From Candidatus Omnitrophota bacterium (GTDB lineage Bacteria > Hinthialibacterota > Hinthialibacteria > Hinthialibacterales > JAKPRU01): DNA of 64,000 nt. A model generated the notes under the pieces. That model searched no databases. It saw only the letters and a list, made by a program, of their open reading frames with translations, and had not been told where the DNA came from. The DNA is taken from NCBI GenBank assembly GCA_029570205.1, contig JAKQSI010000070.1:53254-117253 (forward strand), written 5' to 3'. A program made the position numbers and the translations under genes. Shown one piece after another: positions 1 to 58,403 of this stretch (position 1 is the first letter of the stretch; every line of letters starts with the position of its first letter).

Positions 1-1920
1 TGAAATTGCCTTCGGCTTCTCTTCGGTCCGAATCTTTACACCGATCGGCCCGACTTCAGGAATAAAGTCGATGATTCCGTACCGGTCAACATGCGGCGCG
101 TTCGCCACGTTCAACAGATGAACACTCAATCGCCCGTCTCGTGTCCGCCGCAAAGCCACATCAATACACGGCGGCCCATCAATTTCCACAGCCGGATTCT
201 GAAAGAGCGGATCGACTATCTCCCGAACACACTCGCGCAAGTATGGATGATGGCTTCGGAAGAAATCAAGCGCCAGAGGACCATAGACAGCGCCGATTTT
301 CCCCTTGCCGAACGGAACGACTGTTGATGCTACCTCGCCGTCCTTCCGCGTATCCCGGGTCGGATAGCGATACCCGACCGCCACCGCTTCCGTGGGAACT
401 ACTTTCTGCCAAATCCCGTTCGCATTGGCAATCCCCGCAATCCCTCCGATTGCCGCATTACATGCCAATTCCGCGCGGATCTCTTTCGGCTCTCCCTCGA
501 AAGTCACGCCCAAATGCGGCTCAAATAATCTCGCGCATTTTTCGCCCATCAACAGAAGACTCCCCCCATTTTCTACATACCGGAGTAATGTATTCTTGAA
601 ATCCTCCGGGAGCTTGTAGCAATCCGGAACGACTACTAATGGAAACTCGTTTAAACGAGGCTCCAATTGGTACTCCGCCAATACATCAACAGAATAATGC
701 AACTCCAATAGCGCGTGCAGCGCGCCCTCCAATTCGTCATAGCATCCCCACGGCGAAAACACGTTATCCGAACGATCCCATATCGTCTCCGCCGAGAGCA
801 GCACCGCAACTTGTGGGACTGTCCTGCTCTTAAAACCGGCTTCCTTCCTTTCACGGCAGAAGTCCGACACCTGCCCCAGTGTTTCAATCATAGCATCCGG
901 AAGATACCCGGACCGCGTCGGATTATTATAGATTTGAAACCCGCCTCCCTGCATCAACACCACGGCGGATTCCTGCTGTAGATGGACCGGGGTTTTCAGG
1001 CTCCAATCCAACTTTTGTCCTTTATCAAACCCCCACGCCATCAAATCCCAGGGCATTCCTGTACTCGCCAGATATCGCGCCTCAACCCGGGCGCGATCGA
1101 CCGAGAGACCCGGCGAATAATCCCCGGACAAGTAATCTAATCTGGCGCGGACCGGCAGGGGAGCCAGGGTCGAGTACATCCAGTTACTTGTAATCTGCAA
1201 ATTCGGCCGGAACGCATGAAGTGCATCTACCCAACGGCATAGATAGTCTTCATAATGCCGCCGATGAAACATCTTCCACTCCAGCCAATTCGGCTCGGAA
1301 CGGTCTTTGGGAGCGATATCGAGACCCGTTTCTTTTTTCCACGCTTCCAGCGCGGCGGGAGAATAGTCCAGCTTGGTTGCCCAACATTCTCCATCTACCC
1401 ATAATCCGTCGAGATCGTACTTGGATACCACCTCCTTCAGCTGCGGTATCAATAATTCATCAATGTACCGCCCGAAGACACTCGTCGCATTCGGATCGAC
1501 TTTCCCCTCCGCGTCAAGCCGCGCCCATTCAGGATGATGCTCCACCGCCACACTGTCCCACACACCGGAGTAATGGATATAAAGACCGACACCGTGCTCC
1601 TTTGTTACTTTCCGCCAGATGGCCAATGAATCCTTCACGATTCCCGGCGACGGCCAGCCGATCTCCGTCGGATAGCCCGTATATCCCGCGTGTCCCTTGC
1701 AGTCATATTGCACATAGTCCGGCCGAACTCTCGTGAGTAATCGATCTATCATATCTTCCGTGATGTCGGCCCCGAGAGACGTATCATTCTGATTCGGATG
1801 CAAATCGAAATGCAGTCCAAAAAAGGCGTCCCGCCTCGGAACAGGACGCTTCTCCGCCTCGCAAGGAACGGACATGTTCATCACAACAATCAGGCCGATT
1901 GAGGCAATAAACCGAAACAT
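1..1920 (-). CDS. Partial (C-terminus beyond window start) secreted glycoside-hydrolase-like TIM-barrel protein; start ATG at 1918-1920, N-terminal signal peptide MFRFIASIGLIVVMNMSVPC
   Basis: Manual minus-strand translation of 1741-1920 stays open toward the window edge and no long ORF is listed here on either strand. GGAGA RBS lies 7 nt upstream. GH-like motifs (DYVQYDCKGHAGYTGYP, WVDGECW) seen; family not assigned. Confidence 0.5.
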   Translation of the reverse strand, partial: MFRFIASIGLIVVMNMSVPCEAEKRPVPRRDAFFGLHFDLHPNQNDTSLGADITEDMIDRLLTRVRPDYVQYDCKGHAGYTGYPTEIGWPSPGIVKDSLAIWRKVTKEHGVGLYIHYSGVWDSVAVEHHPEWARLDAEGKVDPNATSVFGRYIDELLIPQLKEVVSKYDLDGLWVDGECWATKLDYSPAALEAWKKETGLDIAPKDRSEPNWLEWKMFHRRHYEDYLCRWVDALHAFRPNLQITSNWMYSTLAPLPVRARLDYLSGDYSPGLSVDRARVEARYLASTGMPWDLMAWGFDKGQKLDWSLKTPVHLQQESAVVLMQGGGFQIYNNPTRSGYLPDAMIETLGQVSDFCRERKEAGFKSRTVPQVAVLLSAETIWDRSDNVFSPWGCYDELEGALHALLELHYSVDVLAEYQLEPRLNEFPLVVVPDCYKLPEDFKNTLLRYVENGGSLLLMGEKCARLFEPHLGVTFEGEPKEIRAELACNAAIGGIAGIANANGIWQKVVPTEAVAVGYRYPTRDTRKDGEVASTVVPFGKGKIGAVYGPLALDFFRSHHPYLRECVREIVDPLFQNPAVEIDGPPCIDVALRRTRDGRLSVHLLNVANAPHVDRYGIIDFIPEVGPIGVKIRTEEKPKAIS

Positions 1921-3509: not shown

Positions 3510-5540
3510 TTACTCCTCTCTTTGTTTCAGGATGACCGGCCTGCCGTCACGATCCGTAATCCGCAGGCTACCCGCCCATTCCCCGCCCGCATTCAGTACC
3601 TTCATTAGAATAAAATTGTTTCCTTTAACGAGATGAACGGATACCTCGTCCTGGTCCGGCTCCCAAAGCCGCCCTCCCTCGTACTCATGAACCAGGCGAC
3701 CGTTCAGCCGGCAAAATACGTCGTCATTGCTTCCGATTTTAAATAGGACGTCCCTTTCATCGTCGCTTTGAATCTCGGCATACAGGTAACTCCCGACCTC
3801 CCCATTGGTCCCAAGCGTCCGCTGCAAATCCACCATTCCAAGAGGATCCGTCACCGAGATCTTCTTCCAGGATATCTGTGTATCCTTTACCTGAACCGGA
3901 ACAGCAACCCGGATCGGCTTGTCCACAGGAATCAGATCCCCCTGTAGCAATTCGGCCCGGCTCCCCACCGGACCAAGCGCCCACCAGTGTACAATACATC
4001 CGTTCCTCCGGGCCATATCCGAAAGAACTTCCGTCGCACCCAGCGCCGTCAGTCGTTTGACTAATGGGAGCCGCAGCGTGCTGTCTGTCGAAGCCTGAGC
4101 GGCGGCCGCACACAACCGAATCGCTGCCTCTTTCTGCTGATTCTTCTCAAGGTCGAGCGAGACTCGAATCGCCGCTTCCGCGGCGGCATTCCTGATATCT
4201 TGATCCTCTTGTTCAAGCGCGGCCTGTAGAATGTCCTTAGAGGATCCGTTACCGAACGATCCGAGCGCTTTGAGAGCCGCCATTCGCAGGTATTTGTTCT
4301 CGCTTGCCGCCGCTTTGGTGACAGCCGGCAACGCCGCCTCATCCGCACGACTACCTAAAATCCCGACCCACACCGTCTCCATTTCCGCCGATGCGCCATC
4401 CATCGCCCGGATCACGGCCTGTGTCGTATCCTCCCCGGGGATCTGTGCCAGGGTCTCGGAAACGGCTTGTACGAGACGCTCGTCTCTGGTCTGAACGGCT
4501 TCCCTCCCGATCGTAATCAATACCGGCGTCGCCTCGGTGATAGCCGAATCTGTTCGCCCCGCCAGTACCGAGACCAGCGCGGCCCGATCTGCGCCCCTCG
4601 ACCTGTTTAATGAATTGATAAGAATCCGGGTAACCGTCTCGCCCGGCATAAGGGCCAGTTGGTCCCGCGCGGCCCCAGTGAGTACCGGATCGCTGCCTCC
4701 CAGCGCCTCCAACAACTCCGGCATTGCTTTCTCACCACACGCATGCGCGAGGCCGGATAAGGCTGCGCCTTTGACTAGCGAACAGGACACCTCGTTCCAG
4801 AGCCGGTGGTACACGGATTCCGGGCCCCGCCCATTGCCCCGCTCCCTGGCAGTCTCCGCCCACTGCAGAAGCGCATCCGCAGCGGCTTTCTTTTCCGCAT
4901 CCGAGCCGCGTTCCCATATCCGCCATAGGGCTTTTGCAGACCGTGAATCTCCCAGGCGGCCCGCTGCCGCTATCGCCGTCAGCCGAACACTCTCATTCTC
5001 ATCGGAGAGCGCTCGTACCACCGCCGAACTCACAGACGGGTCTTTCCGCGCCCCCAATGTTTTCACCAGAGCCGCCTTCCATTCCGGCTCCCTCGCGTTG
5101 CGTAGTGCATCGGCAACGGCCTTCGTGGCGCTCGGATCGGGAATCCGCTCCAGCGCCCATCGCGCCATCTCGCGCTCCTCCGGAACGTCTAATCGCTCCG
5201 AAAGGACGGCAACCGATTCCTTGCCCCCCACCAGGGAAATCAATCGATATGCGAAATCCTTGACCTCGCGCTTGTGCGCCCCCTTCACGGCGCCCAGAAG
5301 AAACACTTCGGCAGCCGCCTGCTCCTCGCGCGCGCCTGGCCTGGTAGACTGGTAGACAATCCGCTCCGCGGCCTGTTTCGCCTGGAGGCGCGCTGTCGCA
5401 TCGCCGGTCTCCATTCGATCGAATTCCGACACGAGCGGCTCGACTATCCCCGGAGATTTCAATTCGTGTACGGTAGCCGTAGAACAGGAGTATAGGAACA
5501 GGCTGAAAGCAAGAATCGTAATATATCGCCATTTCGTCAT
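3510..5540 (-). CDS. HEAT-repeat (PBS-lyase-like) lipoprotein with a C-terminal beta-sandwich/lectin-like domain
   Basis: Start MTKWRYITILAFSLFLYSC (lipobox-like) with AAGGAGA RBS. Long run of A/L/E/R-rich HEAT-like repeats; C-terminal ~170 aa is not repeat-like. ORF-track start at 5573 is probably too far upstream. Confidence 0.6.
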   Translation of the reverse strand: MTKWRYITILAFSLFLYSCSTATVHELKSPGIVEPLVSEFDRMETGDATARLQAKQAAERIVYQSTRPGAREEQAAAEVFLLGAVKGAHKREVKDFAYRLISLVGGKESVAVLSERLDVPEEREMARWALERIPDPSATKAVADALRNAREPEWKAALVKTLGARKDPSVSSAVVRALSDENESVRLTAIAAAGRLGDSRSAKALWRIWERGSDAEKKAAADALLQWAETARERGNGRGPESVYHRLWNEVSCSLVKGAALSGLAHACGEKAMPELLEALGGSDPVLTGAARDQLALMPGETVTRILINSLNRSRGADRAALVSVLAGRTDSAITEATPVLITIGREAVQTRDERLVQAVSETLAQIPGEDTTQAVIRAMDGASAEMETVWVGILGSRADEAALPAVTKAAASENKYLRMAALKALGSFGNGSSKDILQAALEQEDQDIRNAAAEAAIRVSLDLEKNQQKEAAIRLCAAAAQASTDSTLRLPLVKRLTALGATEVLSDMARRNGCIVHWWALGPVGSRAELLQGDLIPVDKPIRVAVPVQVKDTQISWKKISVTDPLGMVDLQRTLGTNGEVGSYLYAEIQSDDERDVLFKIGSNDDVFCRLNGRLVHEYEGGRLWEPDQDEVSVHLVKGNNFILMKVLNAGGEWAGSLRITDRDGRPVILKQREE

Positions 5541-50854: not shown

Positions 50855-51859
50855 ATGACATTACGGATTGGAATTATTGCTTTAGGCAAAATCAGTGAAC
50901 GAACGCATCTGCCTCTGTATAAAGAGGTGAGGGGAGTGCAAGTTGTGGCCGCATGTGACCCCGACGAAGAACGCGCCCTGCTCATGCAGGATCAATTCAA
51001 AATCCCGCGCATTTACAAGTCCTATCAGGAGATGTTTGCCCACGAGGAACTGGATGCGGTTTCGGTCAACAGCCCGCACCGGTTTCACGCGGAACAGGCC
51101 GTCGCCGCCGCAAAGCACGGGCTTCATGTTCTTGTCGAAAAACCCATGGCGCTTTCTGTGAAAGATATTCGCGCCATGATCGCCGCCTCCAGGAAGGCGG
51201 GAAAAGTTCTGATGGTCGAACAGTTCATGCGTTTTCATCCGGCGGTGTATAAGGCCCGCGAAGTGATCCAGTCCGGGAAACTCGGCAAAGTCCTCACGAT
51301 TCGCGGGCATTTCGGTCATGCCGGGCCGGAATACTGGTCGCCGGAGGGCAAGTGGTTCCTGCAGAAAAAAGAAGCGCAGGGTGGAACGATGCTGGATATC
51401 GGTGTGCATGAGATTGACCTGATGCGCTATATCTCCGGCAAGCAGGTGGCTCAGGTTGCCGCTTTCCTGGGGACTCTGAAGAAGAAAATCGATGTGGAGG
51501 ACAACGCGGTTGCGATCCTGCGGTTCGATGACGGAACCCTTGGGACGCTGGAATCCTCCTGGACAAATGATCCGGGCAACTGCCGCACGGAGTTCTATTG
51601 CGAGAAAGGGAACCTGGAGATGAATCTTTCCGGGAAAGATCCCCTGGTGATTTATCGTCCCAACAAAACACCTCAGCCGGTCTCTCTGGCAAAAAAACAT
51701 CCCGAAAAAAGCCCGATGGCCTATTTTGTGAAATGTATCCGAGAGGGTCTGGTTCCACATTGCGATGGTGTAGAGGGTGGCAAAAGTTGCGCCGTGGTCC
51801 TCATGGCCGCCATCTCCGACAAGGAGAAAAGAATCGTCAAAGTCCCGGAAATCGGGTGA
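50855..51859 (+). CDS. Gfo/Idh/MocA family NAD(P)-dependent oxidoreductase
   Basis: IGIIALGKIS Rossmann motif, VEKP motif; AAGGGAG RBS. Confidence 0.85.
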   Translation: MTLRIGIIALGKISERTHLPLYKEVRGVQVVAACDPDEERALLMQDQFKIPRIYKSYQEMFAHEELDAVSVNSPHRFHAEQAVAAAKHGLHVLVEKPMALSVKDIRAMIAASRKAGKVLMVEQFMRFHPAVYKAREVIQSGKLGKVLTIRGHFGHAGPEYWSPEGKWFLQKKEAQGGTMLDIGVHEIDLMRYISGKQVAQVAAFLGTLKKKIDVEDNAVAILRFDDGTLGTLESSWTNDPGNCRTEFYCEKGNLEMNLSGKDPLVIYRPNKTPQPVSLAKKHPEKSPMAYFVKCIREGLVPHCDGVEGGKSCAVVLMAAISDKEKRIVKVPEIG

Positions 51860-51863
51860 TTCG

Positions 51864-51898
51864 ATTGTGGATTGCGGATTGCGGATTGCGGATTGCAG
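51864..51898. repeat. Five tandem heptads GATTG(T/C)G immediately after the oxidoreductase stop
   Basis: The reverse complement CGCAATCC(A/G)CAATC recurs at 47306-47322, 48087-48100 and 29286-29300. Confidence 0.6.
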
Positions 51899-52071
51899 GA
51901 TAACAGGGAGGGGCGCAACCGTCATTCCGGCGAAAGCCGGAATCCAGCGTCCACACGCATAACGCTCGTGATAGCCTTTCTACTTCGAATAGCAGGACGG
52001 TTCCATTCCGTCCGCTATGTCCACTCTCCGACTCCTCCAAAAAATAAAAATCAAAAATTTCGAAAAAAAGC

Positions 52072-52099
52072 TAAAGGTTTTGCTAAGGTTTGCCGATAA
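52072..52099 (+). promoter_or_regulatory. Sigma-28 (FliA)-like promoter TAAAGGTT-N12-GCCGATAA, 1.1 kb upstream of flagellin 1
   Basis: 8/8 match to the -10 GCCGATAA and 7/8 to the -35 TAAAGTTT; spacer one nt longer than the E. coli consensus. Confidence 0.4.
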
Positions 52100-52362
52100 A
52101 GGAACCGACAAGGCAGTAAACCCTTTATGAGGTGTCTGTCGAGGACATCTCCGGGGTTGGCGTTTTCCGTCTGTGGGCATACGGCGAGGCGATACGTCAA
52201 TCGGCCCACAGGGAGCTCTCGGCCCTCTGCGATGGATATCGCGGAGAGGATTCAGAGGAGGATAGTAGCAAGGCCTGGGTGACGCTCATCGGGGCGTTCC
52301 TCCGGCAGGTAAGAATGCGGGTGCCTCGGAAGTATTCTTACCTGTCTGACAAAAGGCGAAAA

Positions 52363-52512
52363 TACATCGAGTCATTGCTGGCATCCCGGCCAAGAGCATG
52401 GGTCCGGTGAACGTGACCACCCTCCCGCGCTCTCATGTGAGTAATGGCTTGATCGACCGCCGCAGCCACTGTAGCCGGATTTCGATCCTGCAGGCGGCTA
52501 CGCCTTTTCAGT
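52363..52512 (+). repeat. Copy 1 of a ~110-nt structured element (conserved blocks AGCATCCCGGCCAAGAG, TGGCTTGATCGACCGCCGCAGC, CTGCAGGCGGCTACGC)
   Basis: Direct repeat of copy 2 at 52953-53060 with a 41-nt insertion; inner GGAT-ttcg-ATCC tetraloop hairpin. Confidence 0.5.
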
Positions 52513-52952
52513 CTCAACGGACCCACCCCTTCGCAGGCTGACGGATTCAACCTGTACTCGCTCAAGGCCAACCGATTGATTCACAACAGAAGGAACCGAG
52601 CCGGGGGCCGGTGTAATCCGGCCTTCCCGGAAGGCATCAACAGATCGGCCCGCCGGTATTCTCAACACGTATCCCGATCGTCCCGGCGCCCGAACGGTTG
52701 ATCCGCCTTCCGCCGGGTACCGGCTGACAACCGGCCTCCACCTCGGTTACAGAAACAGTGGAAGGGCGAGGTCCCAAAGCTGTCTCAGAACGTGATCACT
52801 GACCTGGAGCCCTCTCCCCCAAAGATTGGGGGAGACACAGAGGGGGTTGAGTCAGTCGGACATTAAGGAGCAACATAGACGCGAAAACAGGAGGAATTGC
52901 GCGGACAGAGGAGAACAGGACCGATGATCGCGTGGCCCGGTTAAAATAATTA

Positions 52953-53060
52953 AGCCATAACCAGCATCCCGGCCAAGAGAGTGGGTTATGGCTTAATCGA
53001 CCGCCGCAGCACACCGCAGCCCTATTTGGGTCTGCAGGCGGCTACGCTTTATCGTCTTGC
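52953..53060 (+). repeat. Copy 2 of the ~110-nt structured element, with a 13-bp outer stem TTAAGCCATAACC/GGTTATGGCTTAA
   Basis: Same conserved blocks as copy 1. The 22-nt variable segment between CCGCCGCAG and CTGCAGGCGG has the same length in both copies. Confidence 0.5.
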
Positions 53061-53115
53061 CAGGAAAGGTCGTATTCGGTTGTCTCTCCGAAGTTCCGAT
53101 CTTTCGTATCATCTG

Positions 53116-53145
53116 TTATCGGCAGTTCCTCCCAAACATTAAGCG
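53116..53145 (-). promoter_or_regulatory. Sigma-28-like promoter on the minus strand (TAATGTTT-N10-GCCGATAA), pointing leftwards into the repeat region
   Basis: Reverse complement of 53116-53145 gives TAATGTTTgggaggaactGCCGATAA. Confidence 0.35.
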
Positions 53146-53218
53146 ATTCTACACATTTTTTTCAATTTTTTGCGGGCACGGATGATTTTCCCGCAGGAGA
53201 TTCACGGAGGAAACTGTC

Positions 53219-55624
53219 ATGGTCATCTCCAGCCTGACCCGAAATATCCCTGCTTTGGATGTTATTCTGCGGATGCACCGCACGGAAAGCAACCTCAGCG
53301 CCAACATCACCCGTCTGTCTTCCGGCCTTCGAATCAATACTCCCGCCGATAGTCCGGGCGACTTTGTCACCCTGAGTCGCCTGGGCAGTCGTATTCGGGG
53401 GATCGACCAGGCAAGCCTTAATTCCCAAACTGCGTCCAACATGGCGGCCACCGCGTCAAACGGGATCAGCGAAATGATCTCTCGCCTCCAGTCGATCCGG
53501 ACGAAAGCGGTCGCTGCAGCATCCACCGGAACCTCCGATCGTATTACGCGAGCCGGATACCAGGCCGAGATCAACCAGCTGATCGACGACATGGACCGCA
53601 TCGCCTCCGGGACCTCGTTTAACGGAAAGAATCTGCTTGACGGAAGCTATGCCAGTAGCACCGAGTTCGTCGAACCGAACCGGTTCAACGGGTCTATTTC
53701 CTTTGGGGCAACTTCCTCTACCCTTCGGTCCGGAACCAGCATCCTCAACATCGTGCAATTGGATCCCGGATCCGAACGATTTGTGATCGGCGACACTGGC
53801 GGGATCAGTCTGGGAATTCAAAACCGAACCGACATCGCCGTCTCCATCGGCCAACTCATCGACATGGGAACGGGGCTGACCGCCAATGTGACGGACGACT
53901 TGGACACGCTCAATTTCGGAAAAGTCTCCCTCATCAACAATGGGACGATTCAATTCACCGGTAACCTTGCGGATGGGGTGACTGCATTTGCAGGCCAGGT
54001 TTCTATCGGCGGCGGCCAGGATATCAATGACCTGGTTACGGCCATCCAGGCCGCGATTGACGCAGCGGAAACCGGTATCGGCGTCAACGGTGCGGGCACG
54101 GGACCTTACGAAACCGTGGTCTCCTACGACAACACCACCGGACGGCTGGAGTTCACCAACGGGCAGGGAAATACCATTTCCCAGTTCTCAATCGCATTTA
54201 CGGTCAAGGACAACACCGGAACCACGCAGACCACCACGGGAAGCACACGCACCGCCAATATCTACAACCCGCAAGGGGGAATCGGAACGGTCTCCGGCGC
54301 TCAAATCGGGAACTCTCTGTCTTCCATCACCGGCTCCACCTTCGACCCCGGCACATTTGAAATCACGGTCAGCGACCGGATTGCCGCGCAACAGCGCACC
54401 ATTTCGACGACTTATGCCTTTACGGATTTTGGGGGCGCTCCCGTCGGTGCAGGTACGAACATTAACAATACCGCGTTGTTCAACGGTTCGATCACGCTCT
54501 CTCTCAACAACGGCGACACGATTGACTTTACCGGAACCAATCCCGATGGAACGACGTTCACGGGTACGATCACCATCGCGGCAGGGGACCCGGCTGTCGG
54601 AAACGGCATTGCACGGAGATACAGCGACCTGATCGCCGAGTTGAACTACCGCGATCAGCGCGGAACATTCTACGGGTGGAACCAGGCCACCGCGACGCTT
54701 TCCGCCGGGAAAATCCAACTGATCGATGATGTTGCCGCCACCTCCAGCACAGCCATGCAGATGGTGGTTAATACGGCGGGCGGGGATGCAGTGGATGACG
54801 GTGTTGTAGTGTATTCCGGCAACGCGGAACGGGCGACGATTTCCATTGCAGGCGGCGCAAGTCAGACGGTGGAAAGCGGGCAGGTGGTAACCCTGGAAGG
54901 CGCGGACTTGAATGCCTCCGGACAGGATTCCCAAGTTACGTTTCGTGTCGGACGGAATCTCTTCGATGGCAGCGATGACCTGGAGATTACCGCCCAGGAA
55001 TACATTGCCAGGTTAAACAATGGACCGGCGGTCACATTCCGCAACGGCGACCAGGGGGTATTCATTTCCGATGGGAACAATCCCACCGGCGATATCGCCG
55101 GAGCACAACAGGTCCAACTTAACTTCGACACGGTTTTGGGGATTACTTCCAATGCCTCTTCCGGTGGCGAGAACTTCGTCCTTACAACCGTAGCCGACCG
55201 GCTGAATTACCATATCGGCCCCGATGCCTGGGAGGACCGCATGTTCTCCTATTTCAATGTGCAGTCCTCCAACCTGGGGATCTCCGAAACCCGAAATCTC
55301 GGCAATATCAGTGTGACGACTCTCACGGGCGCAAATGATGCCATCGAGGTCATAGACGCTGCGCTGGACCAGCTGAACGTTGTTGCGGGTGTTGTCGGCA
55401 GCCTGGAAACCCGTATGCAGGACACCTCCAGTCAACTCGATCTCTACTCTCTCAATCTGGACACCGCCTTTTCGACAATCGCCGATGCGGACATGGCGAA
55501 AGAGACAACCAAACTTGCAATGAACTCACTCCTGATGACTTCGCAGACGGCGGCGTTGCTCCAATCGACAATGTTGCCGACCGAAATTATCCCGCTTCTG
55601 CTTGGAATCGACTTGAAGTCATAA
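53219..55624 (+). CDS. Giant flagellin (801 aa): conserved N- and C-terminal flagellin domains with a ~500-aa T/G/N-rich central domain
   Basis: N-terminus NLSANITRLSSGLRINTPADSPGDF; C-terminus LETRMQDTSSQLDLYSLNL...MAKETTKLAMNSLLMTSQTAALLQ; GGAGG RBS. Confidence 0.85.
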   Translation: MVISSLTRNIPALDVILRMHRTESNLSANITRLSSGLRINTPADSPGDFVTLSRLGSRIRGIDQASLNSQTASNMAATASNGISEMISRLQSIRTKAVAAASTGTSDRITRAGYQAEINQLIDDMDRIASGTSFNGKNLLDGSYASSTEFVEPNRFNGSISFGATSSTLRSGTSILNIVQLDPGSERFVIGDTGGISLGIQNRTDIAVSIGQLIDMGTGLTANVTDDLDTLNFGKVSLINNGTIQFTGNLADGVTAFAGQVSIGGGQDINDLVTAIQAAIDAAETGIGVNGAGTGPYETVVSYDNTTGRLEFTNGQGNTISQFSIAFTVKDNTGTTQTTTGSTRTANIYNPQGGIGTVSGAQIGNSLSSITGSTFDPGTFEITVSDRIAAQQRTISTTYAFTDFGGAPVGAGTNINNTALFNGSITLSLNNGDTIDFTGTNPDGTTFTGTITIAAGDPAVGNGIARRYSDLIAELNYRDQRGTFYGWNQATATLSAGKIQLIDDVAATSSTAMQMVVNTAGGDAVDDGVVVYSGNAERATISIAGGASQTVESGQVVTLEGADLNASGQDSQVTFRVGRNLFDGSDDLEITAQEYIARLNNGPAVTFRNGDQGVFISDGNNPTGDIAGAQQVQLNFDTVLGITSNASSGGENFVLTTVADRLNYHIGPDAWEDRMFSYFNVQSSNLGISETRNLGNISVTTLTGANDAIEVIDAALDQLNVVAGVVGSLETRMQDTSSQLDLYSLNLDTAFSTIADADMAKETTKLAMNSLLMTSQTAALLQSTMLPTEIIPLLLGIDLKS

Positions 55625-55768
55625 AAACCAACCGATCGCAGGATCGGAAAAGGAGGTTGAAAATTCGCGAAATGACGTAGTTGTAAGTCCTGGAAATTCC
55701 GAGTACAATAGCCGTCGGGGTCGGAGGAAAGGACTCCTTCGGCTGGGGTCGAGGGTGTTACCCGTGCT

Positions 55769-55776: not shown

Positions 55777-55901
55777 AAGGTGTCATTCGGCAAGGGCGAC
55801 GCGTGCGTCGCCCCTACCGGACGATACCAGGCATCGCTCCCGGAACAGGGGGCATGGTCGGAAGTGGAATAATCAACACAAACACAGCATCACGGAGGAA
55901 G

Positions 55902-58313
55902 ATGGTCATGGATTCCCAACGGATTGGCAGACAATTATTCAATTATTCTCAATACCAGGCGCTTTACTCGAACAAATTACAGAAGGTTCTCGAATCGCTC
56001 TCGTCGGGGTTGCGGATCAACCGGGCGGGGGATGATGCGGCGGGGCTGTCCATCGCCAAGCGGCTTCAGGCACAGTTCAGTTCCCTCAATCAGGCCATGT
56101 CGGATGCCCAGTCCAGTCTGAATGTCGCGGCTGTCGCGGACCAGGCGTTGGGCGAGACCTCGGATCGCTTGGGGCAAATGCGTGAACTTGCGATCCAGGC
56201 GGCAAACACCGGCGTATATGACAAGCAATCTCGGCAGGCGCTCCAGGCAGAACTCAGCCAGTATGTGGATGAAATCAACCGCATCGCCGGTGCAACGCAG
56301 TTCGGAACCAACAGGCTTCTGAACGGTGATCTTTCGGCACAGGCCGGTCTCCGTGCGGGTCAACCGAACATCGGAGCAACGGTGGATACCGGGCCGTTTG
56401 CATCCACGCTGTCCACGGAAACGAATTACCTCACGATCACCCAGACCCGTCAGGGATCGGCCCAGATCCGCGCGGGAGAAGCCTACGGCCGCACACAAAC
56501 AATCAACCTGGGGGTGCAGAATGCGACGGATATCGCGGTCACCACGGGGACCATGTTCAATTCCGCCGCTGCTGCTCCCTCAGCGGCGGGCGACAATCTG
56601 ACCGATACCACGTTCAATTCGGTCACCCTGCAGGCAGGTGGCACAATCACATTCCAGGGCCAATTGGCCGACGGAACCACGGGCTTCTCCGGAACGCTCA
56701 GCATCGGGGCCGGAACGACGATCCATGATCTGGTCAACACGGTCCAGGCTGCCATCGACCAGGCCGAAACCGGGCAGGGAATCAATACCGCAAGCGGAAC
56801 GGGCGCTCGCGAAACCAATGTCCGATTCAATGCCACGACAGGCCGGATAGAATTTGTCAACAGCGCCGGGAATGCAGTCTCGGAGTTTGATATCAACTTC
56901 ACGGTCGAAAATGCCGCCGGAGTTCAGCAGACCCGGGTTGGTGTGACCCGGCAGGCCCAGATGAACGGTGTCGCGACCGGCGCGCAAGTCGGCAATAATG
57001 TGACCGCCATTACCGGCAACACATTCGACACCGGCCGGCTGAATATCACCGTGACCGATGTCCAGGCTGCGACCAACCGGCGAGTGGAAAGCAATATCGC
57101 GTTTCGCGACCAGGGTGGCGCGGCGCTTGCCGCCGGGGGACAACTGGTGGGAGCAGTCTATAACGGTGTTACCCTCGCGGCGGGAGACACTATTCAACTC
57201 CAGGGAACCAATTCTGACGGCACGACGTTTACCAACACGATCACAATTACCGCCGCCGGAGTGGATACCGGGGCAGGGAACGGGACAGCCTCGACATTCC
57301 AGGACCTGGTTGACGAAATGAATGTCCGCGACAATGCCATGGCAGCGGGCGGAGCGGGCAACCAAAGCGGATTCACCTCCGCGCGGGCGACACTCACCGG
57401 CAACGGGACCATCCAGGTCGTGGACGATCTCGCCGGGACTTCTCAAACCAACTTCACGCTCACCGTCAACGACCGTACCCCCGTCGGTGGTCAGACAGCC
57501 GGAACGATGGTGGATCGCGCGCGCGTTGTTGCCGCCGGAAACGCCGAGTCGGCCACGGTGCGCATAAACGGCGGACCGGCGCAGCGAGTCGAGGCCGGGC
57601 AGATGGCAACGCTCTATGGACAGAGAGACGCGACTGGAAATAGATCGCAGCTCACCATGCGGATCGGAACCGGCCTTACCGCCGGAACGGATGTGATGGA
57701 TGTCCGCGCCGATGAATATGTGGGCCGGCTGAACAACGGCACGGCGGTCACATTCCAGGCCGGCGACCAGAATGTCACGTTCACCAGCGGCGCGGCCACA
57801 GGTGTCGCCGAGACGCTCACCATGGATTTCGGGGCTGTTCTGGATATCCCCGGTGTCGGAGCGGCGAACGCCCAGACTGTGATTATTTCCGCCACGAATC
57901 GAAATGCCAATTTTCAGGTTGGAGCGTATGCGGACCGGAACATGCCGCTCTTTTTGGGCGATGTTCGGGCGAACCGGTTGGGCCTCGGTGCAGGACAGAC
58001 CCTTGAGGATATCGATATTACCACCCTCTCCGGCGCGGAGCAGGCCATCGGGATCATTGATGCCGCGCTGGAGGATGTCAATACCAGTCGAAGCCGGATC
58101 GGGGCGTTTTCGAACCGAATGGAGAGTTCGACGCGGGATATGGGGGTCGCAATCGAGAACCTCACAGCGGCCTATTCCCGCATGGCCGATACGGATATGG
58201 CCCGCAGTTCAACCCGTCTCGCGACAGAGAATCTCCTGATGCGGTACAACCTCGCTGTGCTGACACAGACCAATCAGTTGCAAAACCAGATGTTCACCGG
58301 GCTGTTGCCGTAG
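55902..58313 (+). CDS. Giant flagellin paralog (804 aa from MVMDSQ; the ORF-track call is 852 aa)
   Basis: N-terminus LESLSSGLRINRAGDDAAGLSIAKRL; C-terminus RIGAFSNRMESSTRDMGVAIENLTAAYSRMADTDMARSSTRLATENLLMRYNLAVLTQTNQLQ; GGAGGAA RBS. Confidence 0.85.
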   Translation: MVMDSQRIGRQLFNYSQYQALYSNKLQKVLESLSSGLRINRAGDDAAGLSIAKRLQAQFSSLNQAMSDAQSSLNVAAVADQALGETSDRLGQMRELAIQAANTGVYDKQSRQALQAELSQYVDEINRIAGATQFGTNRLLNGDLSAQAGLRAGQPNIGATVDTGPFASTLSTETNYLTITQTRQGSAQIRAGEAYGRTQTINLGVQNATDIAVTTGTMFNSAAAAPSAAGDNLTDTTFNSVTLQAGGTITFQGQLADGTTGFSGTLSIGAGTTIHDLVNTVQAAIDQAETGQGINTASGTGARETNVRFNATTGRIEFVNSAGNAVSEFDINFTVENAAGVQQTRVGVTRQAQMNGVATGAQVGNNVTAITGNTFDTGRLNITVTDVQAATNRRVESNIAFRDQGGAALAAGGQLVGAVYNGVTLAAGDTIQLQGTNSDGTTFTNTITITAAGVDTGAGNGTASTFQDLVDEMNVRDNAMAAGGAGNQSGFTSARATLTGNGTIQVVDDLAGTSQTNFTLTVNDRTPVGGQTAGTMVDRARVVAAGNAESATVRINGGPAQRVEAGQMATLYGQRDATGNRSQLTMRIGTGLTAGTDVMDVRADEYVGRLNNGTAVTFQAGDQNVTFTSGAATGVAETLTMDFGAVLDIPGVGAANAQTVIISATNRNANFQVGAYADRNMPLFLGDVRANRLGLGAGQTLEDIDITTLSGAEQAIGIIDAALEDVNTSRSRIGAFSNRMESSTRDMGVAIENLTAAYSRMADTDMARSSTRLATENLLMRYNLAVLTQTNQLQNQMFTGLLP

Positions 58314-58365: not shown

Positions 58366-58403
58366 TCCCTCCCCCGTTTACGGGGGAGGGTTGGGGGTCA
58401 GGG
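58366..58403. repeat. Family-B element (TCCCTCCCCCG-ttta-CGGGGGAGGG, then TTGGGGGTCAGGG) downstream of flagellin 2
   Basis: 11-bp stem; preceded by a second hairpin CCCCG-tgaa-CGGGG at 58336-58349. Confidence 0.6.

Follow-up and report, generated by a model that had tools for sequence, protein, structure and literature searches.

A conserved flagellin-linked locus of uncultured bacteria with convergent sigma-28-type promoters and a predicted antisense RNA complementary to a repeated leader element

Introduction

Countertranscript control is the regulatory principle of the pT181/pIP501-type systems. Antisense control of leader elongation has been described for RnaG/icsA of Shigella (PMC2879508) and for Anti-Q in the prgQ-prgX region of pCF10 (PMC3181467). 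Among small RNAs (sRNAs) that depend on sigma-28, FliX, MotR, UhpU and FlgO are known from E. coli (PMC10578931) and CJnc170 from Campylobacter jejuni (PMC11187230); CjNC1 and CjNC4 are sRNA paralogues (PMC4626219), and CJnc190 and CJnc180 of C. jejuni, transcribed from opposite strands of one locus, are a trans-acting sRNA and its cis-encoded antisense antagonist (PMC8687705). Here we describe a non-coding locus upstream of a flagellin gene in a 64,000-nt stretch of DNA (hereafter the window; positions are counted from its first nucleotide) from contig JAKQSI010000070.1 of the Candidatus Omnitrophota assembly GCA_029570205.1, which belongs to the Hinthialibacterota. The locus contains two diverged copies of a structured RNA element between two convergent sigma-28-type promoters. 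We propose, with moderate confidence, that two convergent sigma-28-type transcription units here form a regulatory RNA locus, in which an antisense sRNA gates terminators in the flagellin leader.

As in the countertranscript systems, a convergent promoter in or beside the leader is predicted to produce a small structured antisense RNA, the complementary hairpin loops are suited to kissing, and terminator-like hairpins stand upstream of the regulated gene. Unlike in those systems, both promoters are of the sigma-28 type, one or two additional target copies, paralogous and diverged, are present in the sense leader, so that the antisense RNA would act in trans on imperfect copies, and the locus is chromosomal, linked to flagellin and found in an uncultured clade. 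RnaG/icsA and Anti-Q/prgQ cause termination, whereas the anatomy of the present locus appears to fit antitermination better.

The E. coli and Campylobacter flagellar sRNAs share with this locus the FliA-type promoters, the linkage to flagellar genes and the occurrence of paralogues, and two such sRNAs can act oppositely. They show no relationship to it in sequence or structure (no Rfam match), are mostly derived from untranslated regions (UTRs) and act on distant mRNAs, and none has been described as antisense to repeated elements of a flagellin leader. The CJnc190/CJnc180 pair resembles the locus in that opposite-strand RNAs of one locus have extensive complementarity and one could titrate or process the other. 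However, those two RNAs overlap at a single copy and are processed by RNase III, whereas the partner sites considered here are separate paralogous copies 0.3-1 kb away, and both RNAs would have flagellar promoters.

The preliminary description of this DNA, made from the sequence alone, had named a comparison with Rfam as a check on its claims. With Rfam 15 at the gathering threshold there were no matches in the whole window or in 12 related loci, and thus no match to a riboswitch family in either; at E<=10 the best matches within 51700-53400 were at chance level (20 bits against a threshold of 75). No known RNA family was identified. A sequestering RNA of the CsrB/RsmZ type is not indicated either: in the conserved loop GCAUCCCGGCCAAGAG of the first hairpin, GGA is absent in most lineages, and two related loci (L011 and L012) have not kept the clusters of GGA seen here within 52240-52265 and 52880-52920. 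We rate the locus as a new family of RNAs that follows a familiar regulatory scheme, because it matches no described family and combines one promoter class on both strands, a multiplied antisense target and tight linkage to flagellin in an uncultured clade. We know of no described circuit with this layout.

A repeated structured element upstream of flagellin

The locus occupies a gap of 1,359 nt between a GFO/IDH/MocA oxidoreductase gene (50855-51859, plus strand) and the flagellin 1 gene (53219-55624, plus strand; 801 aa; Pfam Flagellin_N 2.8e-29, Flagellin_C 4.2e-09), which is the first of two tandem flagellin genes encoding proteins of about 800 aa. Three direct-repeat blocks are found in the gap, pairing 52370-52403 with 52953-52986 (79% identical), 52437-52466 with 52981-53010 (90%), and 52488-52509 with 53032-53053 (91%). 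A covariance model of the element matches the window exactly twice, at 52365-52512 (70.5 bits, E 6e-15) and 52948-53056 (112.3 bits), in agreement with the two diverged direct copies originally described. Neither block searches nor the covariance model with filters off revealed further copies in the window.

All copies share a hairpin, P1, with an invariant loop GCAUCCCG(G/A)CCAAGAG, and an invariant linker (U)AAUCGACCGC, followed by a long irregular hairpin, P2, with a base CGCAGC/GCUACG that includes a C-A mismatch, and a U-rich tail. In copy 1 (52365-52512, plus strand), which we call the sense copy, P1 is formed by about 52369-52379 and 52439-52450, the conserved loop GCAUCCCGGCCAAGAG lies at 52381-52396 beside a 44-nt lineage-specific insertion, and the linker AUCGACCGC leads into P2 (52461-52502, closed by CGCAGC/GCUACG) and a CCUUUUC tail. 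Copy 2 (52948-53056 in plus-strand coordinates), the last copy before flagellin and the putative template of the antisense sRNA, contains the conserved blocks A (52964-52979) and B (52996-53009). The two differing apical hairpins noted previously, GGAT-ttcg-ATCC and CCC-tattt-GGG, are both present. The 9-bp stem CCGCCGCAG/CTGCAGGCGG with a bulged A, which had been taken for the conserved stem, proved to be a register variant confined to this lineage; the pairing conserved across lineages is the long irregular hairpin closed by CGCAGC/GCUACG.

We gathered relatives by a flagellin protein search, which yielded syntenic or analogous loci, and by the pattern scans described below. The comparative set comprises about 35 element copies in 13 lineages: the window group (the window with L007, L008, L026, L044, L085 and L102), L011, L012, L017, L047, L049, L051, L113, L119, L141, L161, L163 and L165. 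The relatives are labeled 'bacterium', Candidatus Omnitrophota or Ca. Hinthialibacter, and an identical locus is present in the metagenome-assembled genome (MAG) GCA_035417385.1. Hinthialibacterota (OLB16) were earlier classed inside Omnitrophota, and their type MAG codes for flagella (PMC9324843). One architecture was found upstream of the first flagellin gene in the 13 lineages, in which flagellin identity ranges from 35 to 90%: A/T-rich DNA with a far-upstream plus-strand promoter box, two or three element copies in the same orientation, and a minus-strand box before the ATG. The sense RNA would thus hold one upstream element here and two in most relatives, and the last copy lies at about -250 to -145 from the flagellin ATG, preceded by an A-tract. 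The upstream neighbor gene differs between lineages, while the locus stays directly 5' of the first flagellin gene. Conservation of the element upstream of flagellin in relatives had been set beforehand as a test of its significance, and these 13 lineages bear it out. One flagellin locus (L052, 34% identity) has no element.

The conserved-block patterns were also scanned across 185,579 species genomes and Joint Genome Institute (JGI) metagenomes. The pattern TCGACCGCCGCAGC-N20-40-GGCTACGC matched 34 loci in the genomes, only four of them real, and GCATCCCGRCC-N18-48-GACCGCCGCAG matched 108 stretches in the metagenomes, of which only about six were real. The remaining matches are chance occurrences in unrelated GC-rich DNA. 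All true matches belong to this type of locus, with flagellin adjoining downstream wherever the contig extends far enough.

Selection on RNA structure, previously argued from the two copies in the window, is supported by covariation across the alignment. Among 30 copies aligned to the model, compensatory double changes occur at 11 of the 12 P1 pairs, and 86% of the P1 cells are paired, compared to 75% in column shuffles (reached in 0/500) and 23-42% with the partners slid. The P2 base yields no covariation because it never varies; the P2 interior is wholly different between lineages yet always folds. In an alignment of the closest loci, copy 2 is nearly invariant where the flanks are unalignable and the flagellin proteins are only 63-70% identical, and its conservation exceeds that of the flagellin protein gene.

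Two convergent sigma-28-type promoters

The sigma-28 (FliA/SigD) consensus consists of a -35 box TAAAGTTT, a spacer of about 11 nt and a -10 box GCCGATAA. On the plus strand, the FliA-type match reported previously was confirmed as TAAAGGTT-N12-GCCGATAA at 52072-52099; it is preceded by UP-like A-tracts (52040-52070), so that the promoter region spans 52040-52099, and transcription is predicted to start at about 52106-52108. On the minus strand, a second promoter (53116-53176), directed away from flagellin, has the boxes TAATGTTT-N10-GCCGATAA and an upstream A-tract that appears on the plus strand as the T-run 53156-53176. This match is real, although the range of 53116-53145 originally given for it holds four surplus bases and should read 53141-53116. 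With up to two mismatches allowed in the -35 box and an exact -10 box GCCGATAA, the window contains exactly these two matches, compared to 0.015 in shuffled sequence. At the sequence level both sites have the boxes of sigma-28 promoters, and they are predicted to be active as such.

Both boxes keep their position and orientation in all lineages whose contig covers them, and the UP-like A-tracts are conserved at both promoters. The plus-strand box reads aaaaaaaGCTAAAG(G/T)TTT-N-GCCGATA(A/T) in relatives and reaches TAAAGTTT-N11-GCCGATA(C/T); its -10 box lies 665-1640 nt 5' of the flagellin ATG in 10 of 13 lineages, those with a contig extending far enough. Just 3' of this -10 box, where the sense RNA is predicted to begin, is a conserved CCGACAAGG (52105-52113, plus strand), whose counterpart in most lineages is CCGACA(A/C)GG or CGACAC. 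The minus-strand promoter is conserved in 13/13 lineages; it precedes the ATG by 55-105 nt, its -35 box by 55-78 nt. In distant lineages it reads GCTAAAGTTTTT-N11-GCCTATAA, reaching the textbook TAAAGTTT-N11-GCCTATAA with an upstream A-tract. The L049 locus has two minus-strand sigma-28-type boxes (4772-4800 and 4918-4945) with about 110 extra nt between them; TCAACTTA-N12-GCCGATAA adjoins the last copy, and TAAAGTTT-N11-GCCTATAA is near the ATG.

A plus-strand promoter closer to flagellin was not recognized: a sigma-70 scan between the minus-strand promoter and the ATG found none, and a by-eye reading of the same interval for sigma-54 and sigma-28 boxes found nothing conserved.

The last copy as a candidate antisense sRNA gene

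The last copy and the minus-strand promoter together have the anatomy of a complete sRNA gene, from which we predict a sigma-28-dependent antisense RNA of about 165-170 nt (52940-53108, minus strand; both end points are predicted). Its plan comprises a variable 5' part (53108-53048), a P2' hairpin complementary to 53005-53046, a single-stranded linker GCGGUCGAUUA, and a P1' terminator hairpin with arms 52949-52962 and 52984-52997 and the loop CUCUUGGCCGGGAUGC, followed by a UUAUUUU tract. Plan and length are kept in 13 lineages (133-201 nt, mostly 160-177), with a variable 5' part of about 55-65 nt. P1' is a stem of 14-17 bp followed by UUAUUUU here and by U5-8 in most relatives, and thus has the sequence features of a Rho-independent terminator; a simple terminator scanner misses it because of its loop limit of 8 nt.

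Strand signatures of the copies agree with the previous proposal that the plus-strand promoter would transcribe copy 1 in sense and the minus-strand promoter copy 2 in antisense, and because of these signatures we expect the two RNAs to be complementary. In last copies, P1 has no G-U pair on the plus strand and has A-C, which is G-U on the minus strand, in four lineages; the conserved C-A mismatch of the P2 base likewise becomes U-G on the minus strand. The mean folding energy of the last-copy P2 is -23.6 kcal/mol on the minus strand vs. -15.1 on the plus strand, the minus fold being more stable in 13/13 lineages. In the window, the minimum free energy (MFE) of the antisense sRNA is -52.3 kcal/mol (z -4.98) on the minus strand vs. 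-42.6 (z -3.55) on the plus strand. Across lineages the whole unit has -44.6 to -52.5 kcal/mol on the minus strand (z -4.7 to -6.8) vs. -28.4 to -42.6 on the plus strand, with the minus fold better by 9-17 kcal/mol in 8/8 lineages.

The upstream copies look like plus-strand RNAs with terminator-like ends: they have many P1 G-U pairs on the plus strand and U4-9 tracts after P2, and in the lineages examined no minus-strand promoter stands beside them. In the window, copy 1 has three P1 G-U pairs on the plus strand and no A-C, and its fold scores z -2.95 on the plus strand vs. -0.83 on the minus strand.

The spacer between the copies also contains a minus-strand terminator-like hairpin ACCGGCCCCCGGCUCGGU followed by UCCUUCUGUU (52595-52612), of which the GGGGGCCGG core is kept in L011 and L012; it could stop minus-strand read-through beyond the sRNA terminator.

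Complementarity and co-evolution of the copies

By construction, the antisense RNA complements the last copy exactly, and therefore also the conserved loop, linker and P2 base of the upstream copies. Its complementarity to the blocks of copy 1 is 79-91%, with perfect runs of 16, 7+15 and 16 nt. The complementarity anticipated in the preliminary description is therefore borne out in the sequence. Two features of a cis-encoded antisense system, a convergent promoter and an antisense RNA complementary to the leader, are present, with the boxes kept in 13 lineages.

The copies of one genome also resemble each other in the segments predicted to pair. Over 41 columns of the loop, linker and P2 base, identity between last and first copies is 0.871 within a genome and 0.812 between genomes (reached in 0/20,000 permutations), whereas the 24 P1 stem columns show no excess (0.606 within vs. 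0.598 between, p 0.27). Individual lineage-specific changes are shared: CCCGACC in 3/3 copies of L047, CCAG in 3/3 copies of L049, GACCAAC in copies 1 and 3 of L049, GACCAC in copies 1 and 3 of L163 and L165, and AACUGACC in copies 1 and 3 of L047. This co-evolution, limited to the predicted intermolecular contact segments, fits selection for RNA-RNA complementarity and lends support to the predicted pairing.

RNAduplex energies of the antisense RNA against the ribosome-binding region of flagellin were no better than with shuffled targets (z -2.9 to +1.0), and no consistent site emerged. A pseudoknot linking the G-to-A change in the L047 loop with the UC-to-CU change in its linker was rejected on inspection, the geometry being unsuitable.

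Proposed mechanism

The putative RNA genes, their strands and their complementarity are backed by sequence and comparative evidence; from them we infer the expression of the RNAs, read-through into flagellin and the sign of the effect. According to the model, the plus-strand promoter would give a sense RNA in which P1, with its 16-nt loop GCAUCCCGGCCAAGAG, is followed by the single-stranded linker AAUCGACCGC, P2 and a U-rich tract; P2 and a U tract follow each sense copy. The minus-strand promoter would yield an sRNA of about 165 nt with a P1' loop that is the exact complement of the sense loop. This sRNA would engage the upstream sense copies in trans, pairing loop with loop and linker with linker, and would be perfectly paired to any plus-strand transcript that reads through the last copy. 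Since the 5' arm of P2 begins where the linker ends, pairing would stop P2 from forming and so block the terminator in the nascent leader, and polymerase from the sole recognizable plus-strand promoter would proceed into flagellin. In effect, sigma-28 would act on flagellin through a feed-forward gate that has two or three checkpoints. Attenuation, which has the opposite sign, RNase III processing and mutual titration are equally compatible with the sequence. A more specific version, in which the sRNA is a trans-acting antiterminator or attenuator on two or three serial paralogous terminator modules and flagellin needs both sigma-28 and accumulated sRNA, is put forward as a tentative and rather speculative proposal.

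Several points weigh against the gated-leader proposal. It would be unusual for flagellin, which is usually very highly expressed, to be transcribed through two or three terminator-like hairpins and head-on into a strong convergent promoter, and an unrecognized flagellin-proximal promoter may exist. Sigma-28 is not the sole route to flagellin expression in the clade, since sigma-70-like TGnTATAAT boxes stand at flagellin 2 in distant lineages. The P2 hairpins of first copies are only moderate plus-strand terminators (-6 to -15 kcal/mol) and, like those of last copies, are more stable on the minus strand; we read this as kept complementarity to the antisense RNA, but the observation does weaken the case for efficient plus-strand termination. 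In the sense element we found no conserved alternative antiterminator fold but only a register shift peculiar to this lineage, CCGCCGCAG/CUGCAGGCGG, which leaves the sign of regulation a matter of guesswork. Finally, short-tract gene conversion, starting preferentially in the most similar blocks, could be an alternative source of the co-evolution between copies.

Alternative explanations

The plus- and minus-strand RNAs might instead be independent, trans-acting, sigma-28-dependent sRNAs, paralogous to each other and with targets elsewhere, in which case their complementarity would result from ancestry or from a sponge function. Each unit does resemble a complete gene with promoter, structured body and terminator, sigma-28-dependent sRNAs and sRNA/antagonist pairs are known elsewhere (PMC10578931, PMC11187230, PMC8687705), and we detected no direct pairing between the antisense RNA and the region where flagellin translation starts. 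Yet the locus is always found directly before the first flagellin gene, even though its upstream neighbor has been replaced completely, the minus-strand promoter stands at a fixed distance from the ATG, a separate flagellin promoter was not recognized, and the seed-like blocks have no other match in the window. We consider this explanation rather unlikely.

Slightly less probable still is that the copies are purely cis-acting leader modules of the plus strand, either tandem riboswitch-like or protein-dependent attenuators, each controlling termination at its P2 and U tract in response to a ligand or protein, with the minus-strand promoter serving only for transcriptional interference or being irrelevant. 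Invariant loop and junction nucleotides, covarying stems and a hairpin with a U tract do give the usual look of an aptamer with its expression platform; tandem leader arrangements are known for riboswitches, and every copy is oriented as flagellin is. This explanation does not account for a last copy optimized for the minus strand with its own conserved promoter and terminator. In addition, loop and linker changes common to the copies of one genome are less expected of a universal ligand pocket, and Rfam matched no known riboswitch class.

Flagellar phase variation in Salmonella occurs through promoter inversion, and a near-consensus sigma-28 promoter 55-105 nt before the ATG, facing the wrong way, could be the flagellin promoter in the OFF orientation of an invertible switch. 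We regard this as very improbable and reject it because the orientation is constant, in 13/13 independent lineages and in several assemblies of one species, and because there are no real flanking inverted repeats, the sole surrounding one consisting of the low-complexity A/T tracts of the two promoters. Moreover, no recombinase gene adjoins, and a conserved structured RNA and a terminator follow the promoter in its direction.

The gap was described as non-coding from the outset, and its only open reading frame (ORF; 52132-52410, 92 aa) as weak. Independent gene callers leave the gap empty in six copies of the contig; one gene caller annotates a counterpart of the ORF in L008. The ORF has a frameshift in L007 and multiple stops in L011 and L012, its substitutions fall evenly across codon positions (5/4/6 and 8/9/8), it has no Pfam match, and the ORF called at a similar position in L047 runs through the conserved block in another frame. 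We therefore judge it not coding and rule out a small protein gene at this position, in accordance with both earlier statements. That the region is a degenerate duplication or the remnant of such a gene, with no RNA function, is the least credible explanation of all, given these interruptions and frame differences, a copy 2 more conserved than the flagellin gene and the strong covariation of P1.

Flagellin leader and flagellin 2

The plus-strand 5' UTR of flagellin 1 (53171-53211) contains a hairpin UGCGGG-CACGGAUGAUUUU-CCCGCA (53171-53195) with CACGGAUGA in its loop, and a Shine-Dalgarno region CACGGAGGA (53203-53211); together these give two GGA sites of the CsrA-binding kind. Hairpin and CACGGAGGA are shared by the window group, L011 and L012; distant lineages lack them, and their Shine-Dalgarno region reads (A/G)UGGGAGAAG. 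The hag leader of B. subtilis is under CsrA/FliW control. The same control acts on the flaA leader of C. jejuni (PMC4894983). Like these leaders, that of flagellin 1 in this lineage has a GGA-loop hairpin and a GGA-containing Shine-Dalgarno region just before the ATG, and by analogy CsrA may bind there. The likeness is limited to the final ~50 nt; a conserved GGA loop motif is absent from the repeated element, which is thus no sponge of the CsrB type.

The same CACGGAGGA is found before flagellin 2 (55893-55901). For this gene the ORF list gives a GTG start at 55755 (852 aa), while gene callers and the conserved Shine-Dalgarno region point to the ATG at 55908 (801 aa). No sigma-28 box is conserved in the 283 nt that separate the flagellin genes; a weak CCGATAA box before flagellin 2 is not conserved, as it is deleted in L007. 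In distant lineages this place is taken by the sigma-70-like TGnTATAAT boxes considered above.

Other features of the locus

Upstream of copy 1 lies a second conserved hairpin module (52293-52344, plus strand), with a stem formed by 52306-52316 and 52334-52344, the loop GCGGGUGCCUCGGAAGU, and GGCGUUCC before it. It is the reverse complement of a module of distant lineages, a UUCCGAGGC(C)-loop hairpin followed about 20-30 nt on by GGAACGCC, which those lineages have on their plus strand, between the middle copy and the last one (L163 ~960-1000; L165 ~1000-1040; L119 ~75-125; L113, reverse complement, ~815-860). In the window group, L011 and L012 the module is reverse-complemented and upstream of copy 1. 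Its stem has a compensatory change in L011 (TAAGAAT/ATTCTTA to TGAGAAT/ATTCTCA) and G-U pairs on the plus strand in L007, L011 and L012. As G-U pairs favor the plus strand in both arrangements, the RNA loop would be complementary between the two groups. Pairing of the UUCCGAGGC module loop with the 5' region of the antisense RNA was rejected on inspection, with only 5+3 bp here and none in distant lineages. Elsewhere in the window, a terminator-like hairpin with a UUCCGAGGC loop (1820-1860, minus strand) follows a minus-strand gene (2042-2515); its loop complements the GCCUCGGAA loop at 52323-52331 exactly, but a match of nine nucleotides is near chance level here and possibly a coincidence.

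At 52669-52682, CACGUAUCCCGAUCG, kept in L011 and L012, resembles a degenerate block A (GCAUCCCGGCC); it is not scored by the covariance model and may be a remnant of the middle copy still present in distant lineages. A G/C palindrome, CTCCCCC-N-GGGGGAG, often followed by GGGGGTTGA, recurs in the intergenic DNA of these genomes. The window has two copies (52814-52834, in the spacer between the element copies, and 58369-58388) against 0.01 expected, and others are found at ~4160-4200 and ~5560-5600 in L011 and at 40-130 in L113 (reverse complement). It looks like a dispersed repeat of the repetitive extragenic palindrome (REP) or miniature inverted-repeat transposable element (MITE) type.

Directly after the oxidoreductase stop codon is a 7-nt tandem repeat, GATTGCG (5.4 copies, 51863-51901), with more copies in L008, L009 and L026 and none in L011 and L012, and thus a microsatellite of variable copy number. 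It is followed by a perfect 10-bp hairpin with a GAAA loop (51924-51947, in the region CATTCCGGCG-AAAG-CCGGAATC), 3' of the oxidoreductase gene and kept in L008, which may be a terminator or stability element of that gene.

Significance

No other flagellar product is as costly as flagellin, yet how it is controlled once sigma-28 has been activated is understood in only a few model bacteria. The present locus likely controls flagellin expression, by antitermination, attenuation or processing, as judged from its sequence and conservation. It would add a new structured RNA family and an unusual circuit, with convergent promoters of the same class and an antisense target multiplied within the leader. 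The locus also shows that co-evolution among the paralogous RNA copies of one genome can serve as evidence of RNA-RNA pairing. The comparative set and the clear predictions of RNA ends allow direct tests in metatranscriptomes from digesters and sludge, where these organisms occur. If flagellin does require both sigma-28 and accumulated sRNA, the locus would act as a timer or threshold device of the feed-forward kind, built from RNA alone and equipped with its own decoy copies, in a candidate phylum without cultured members.

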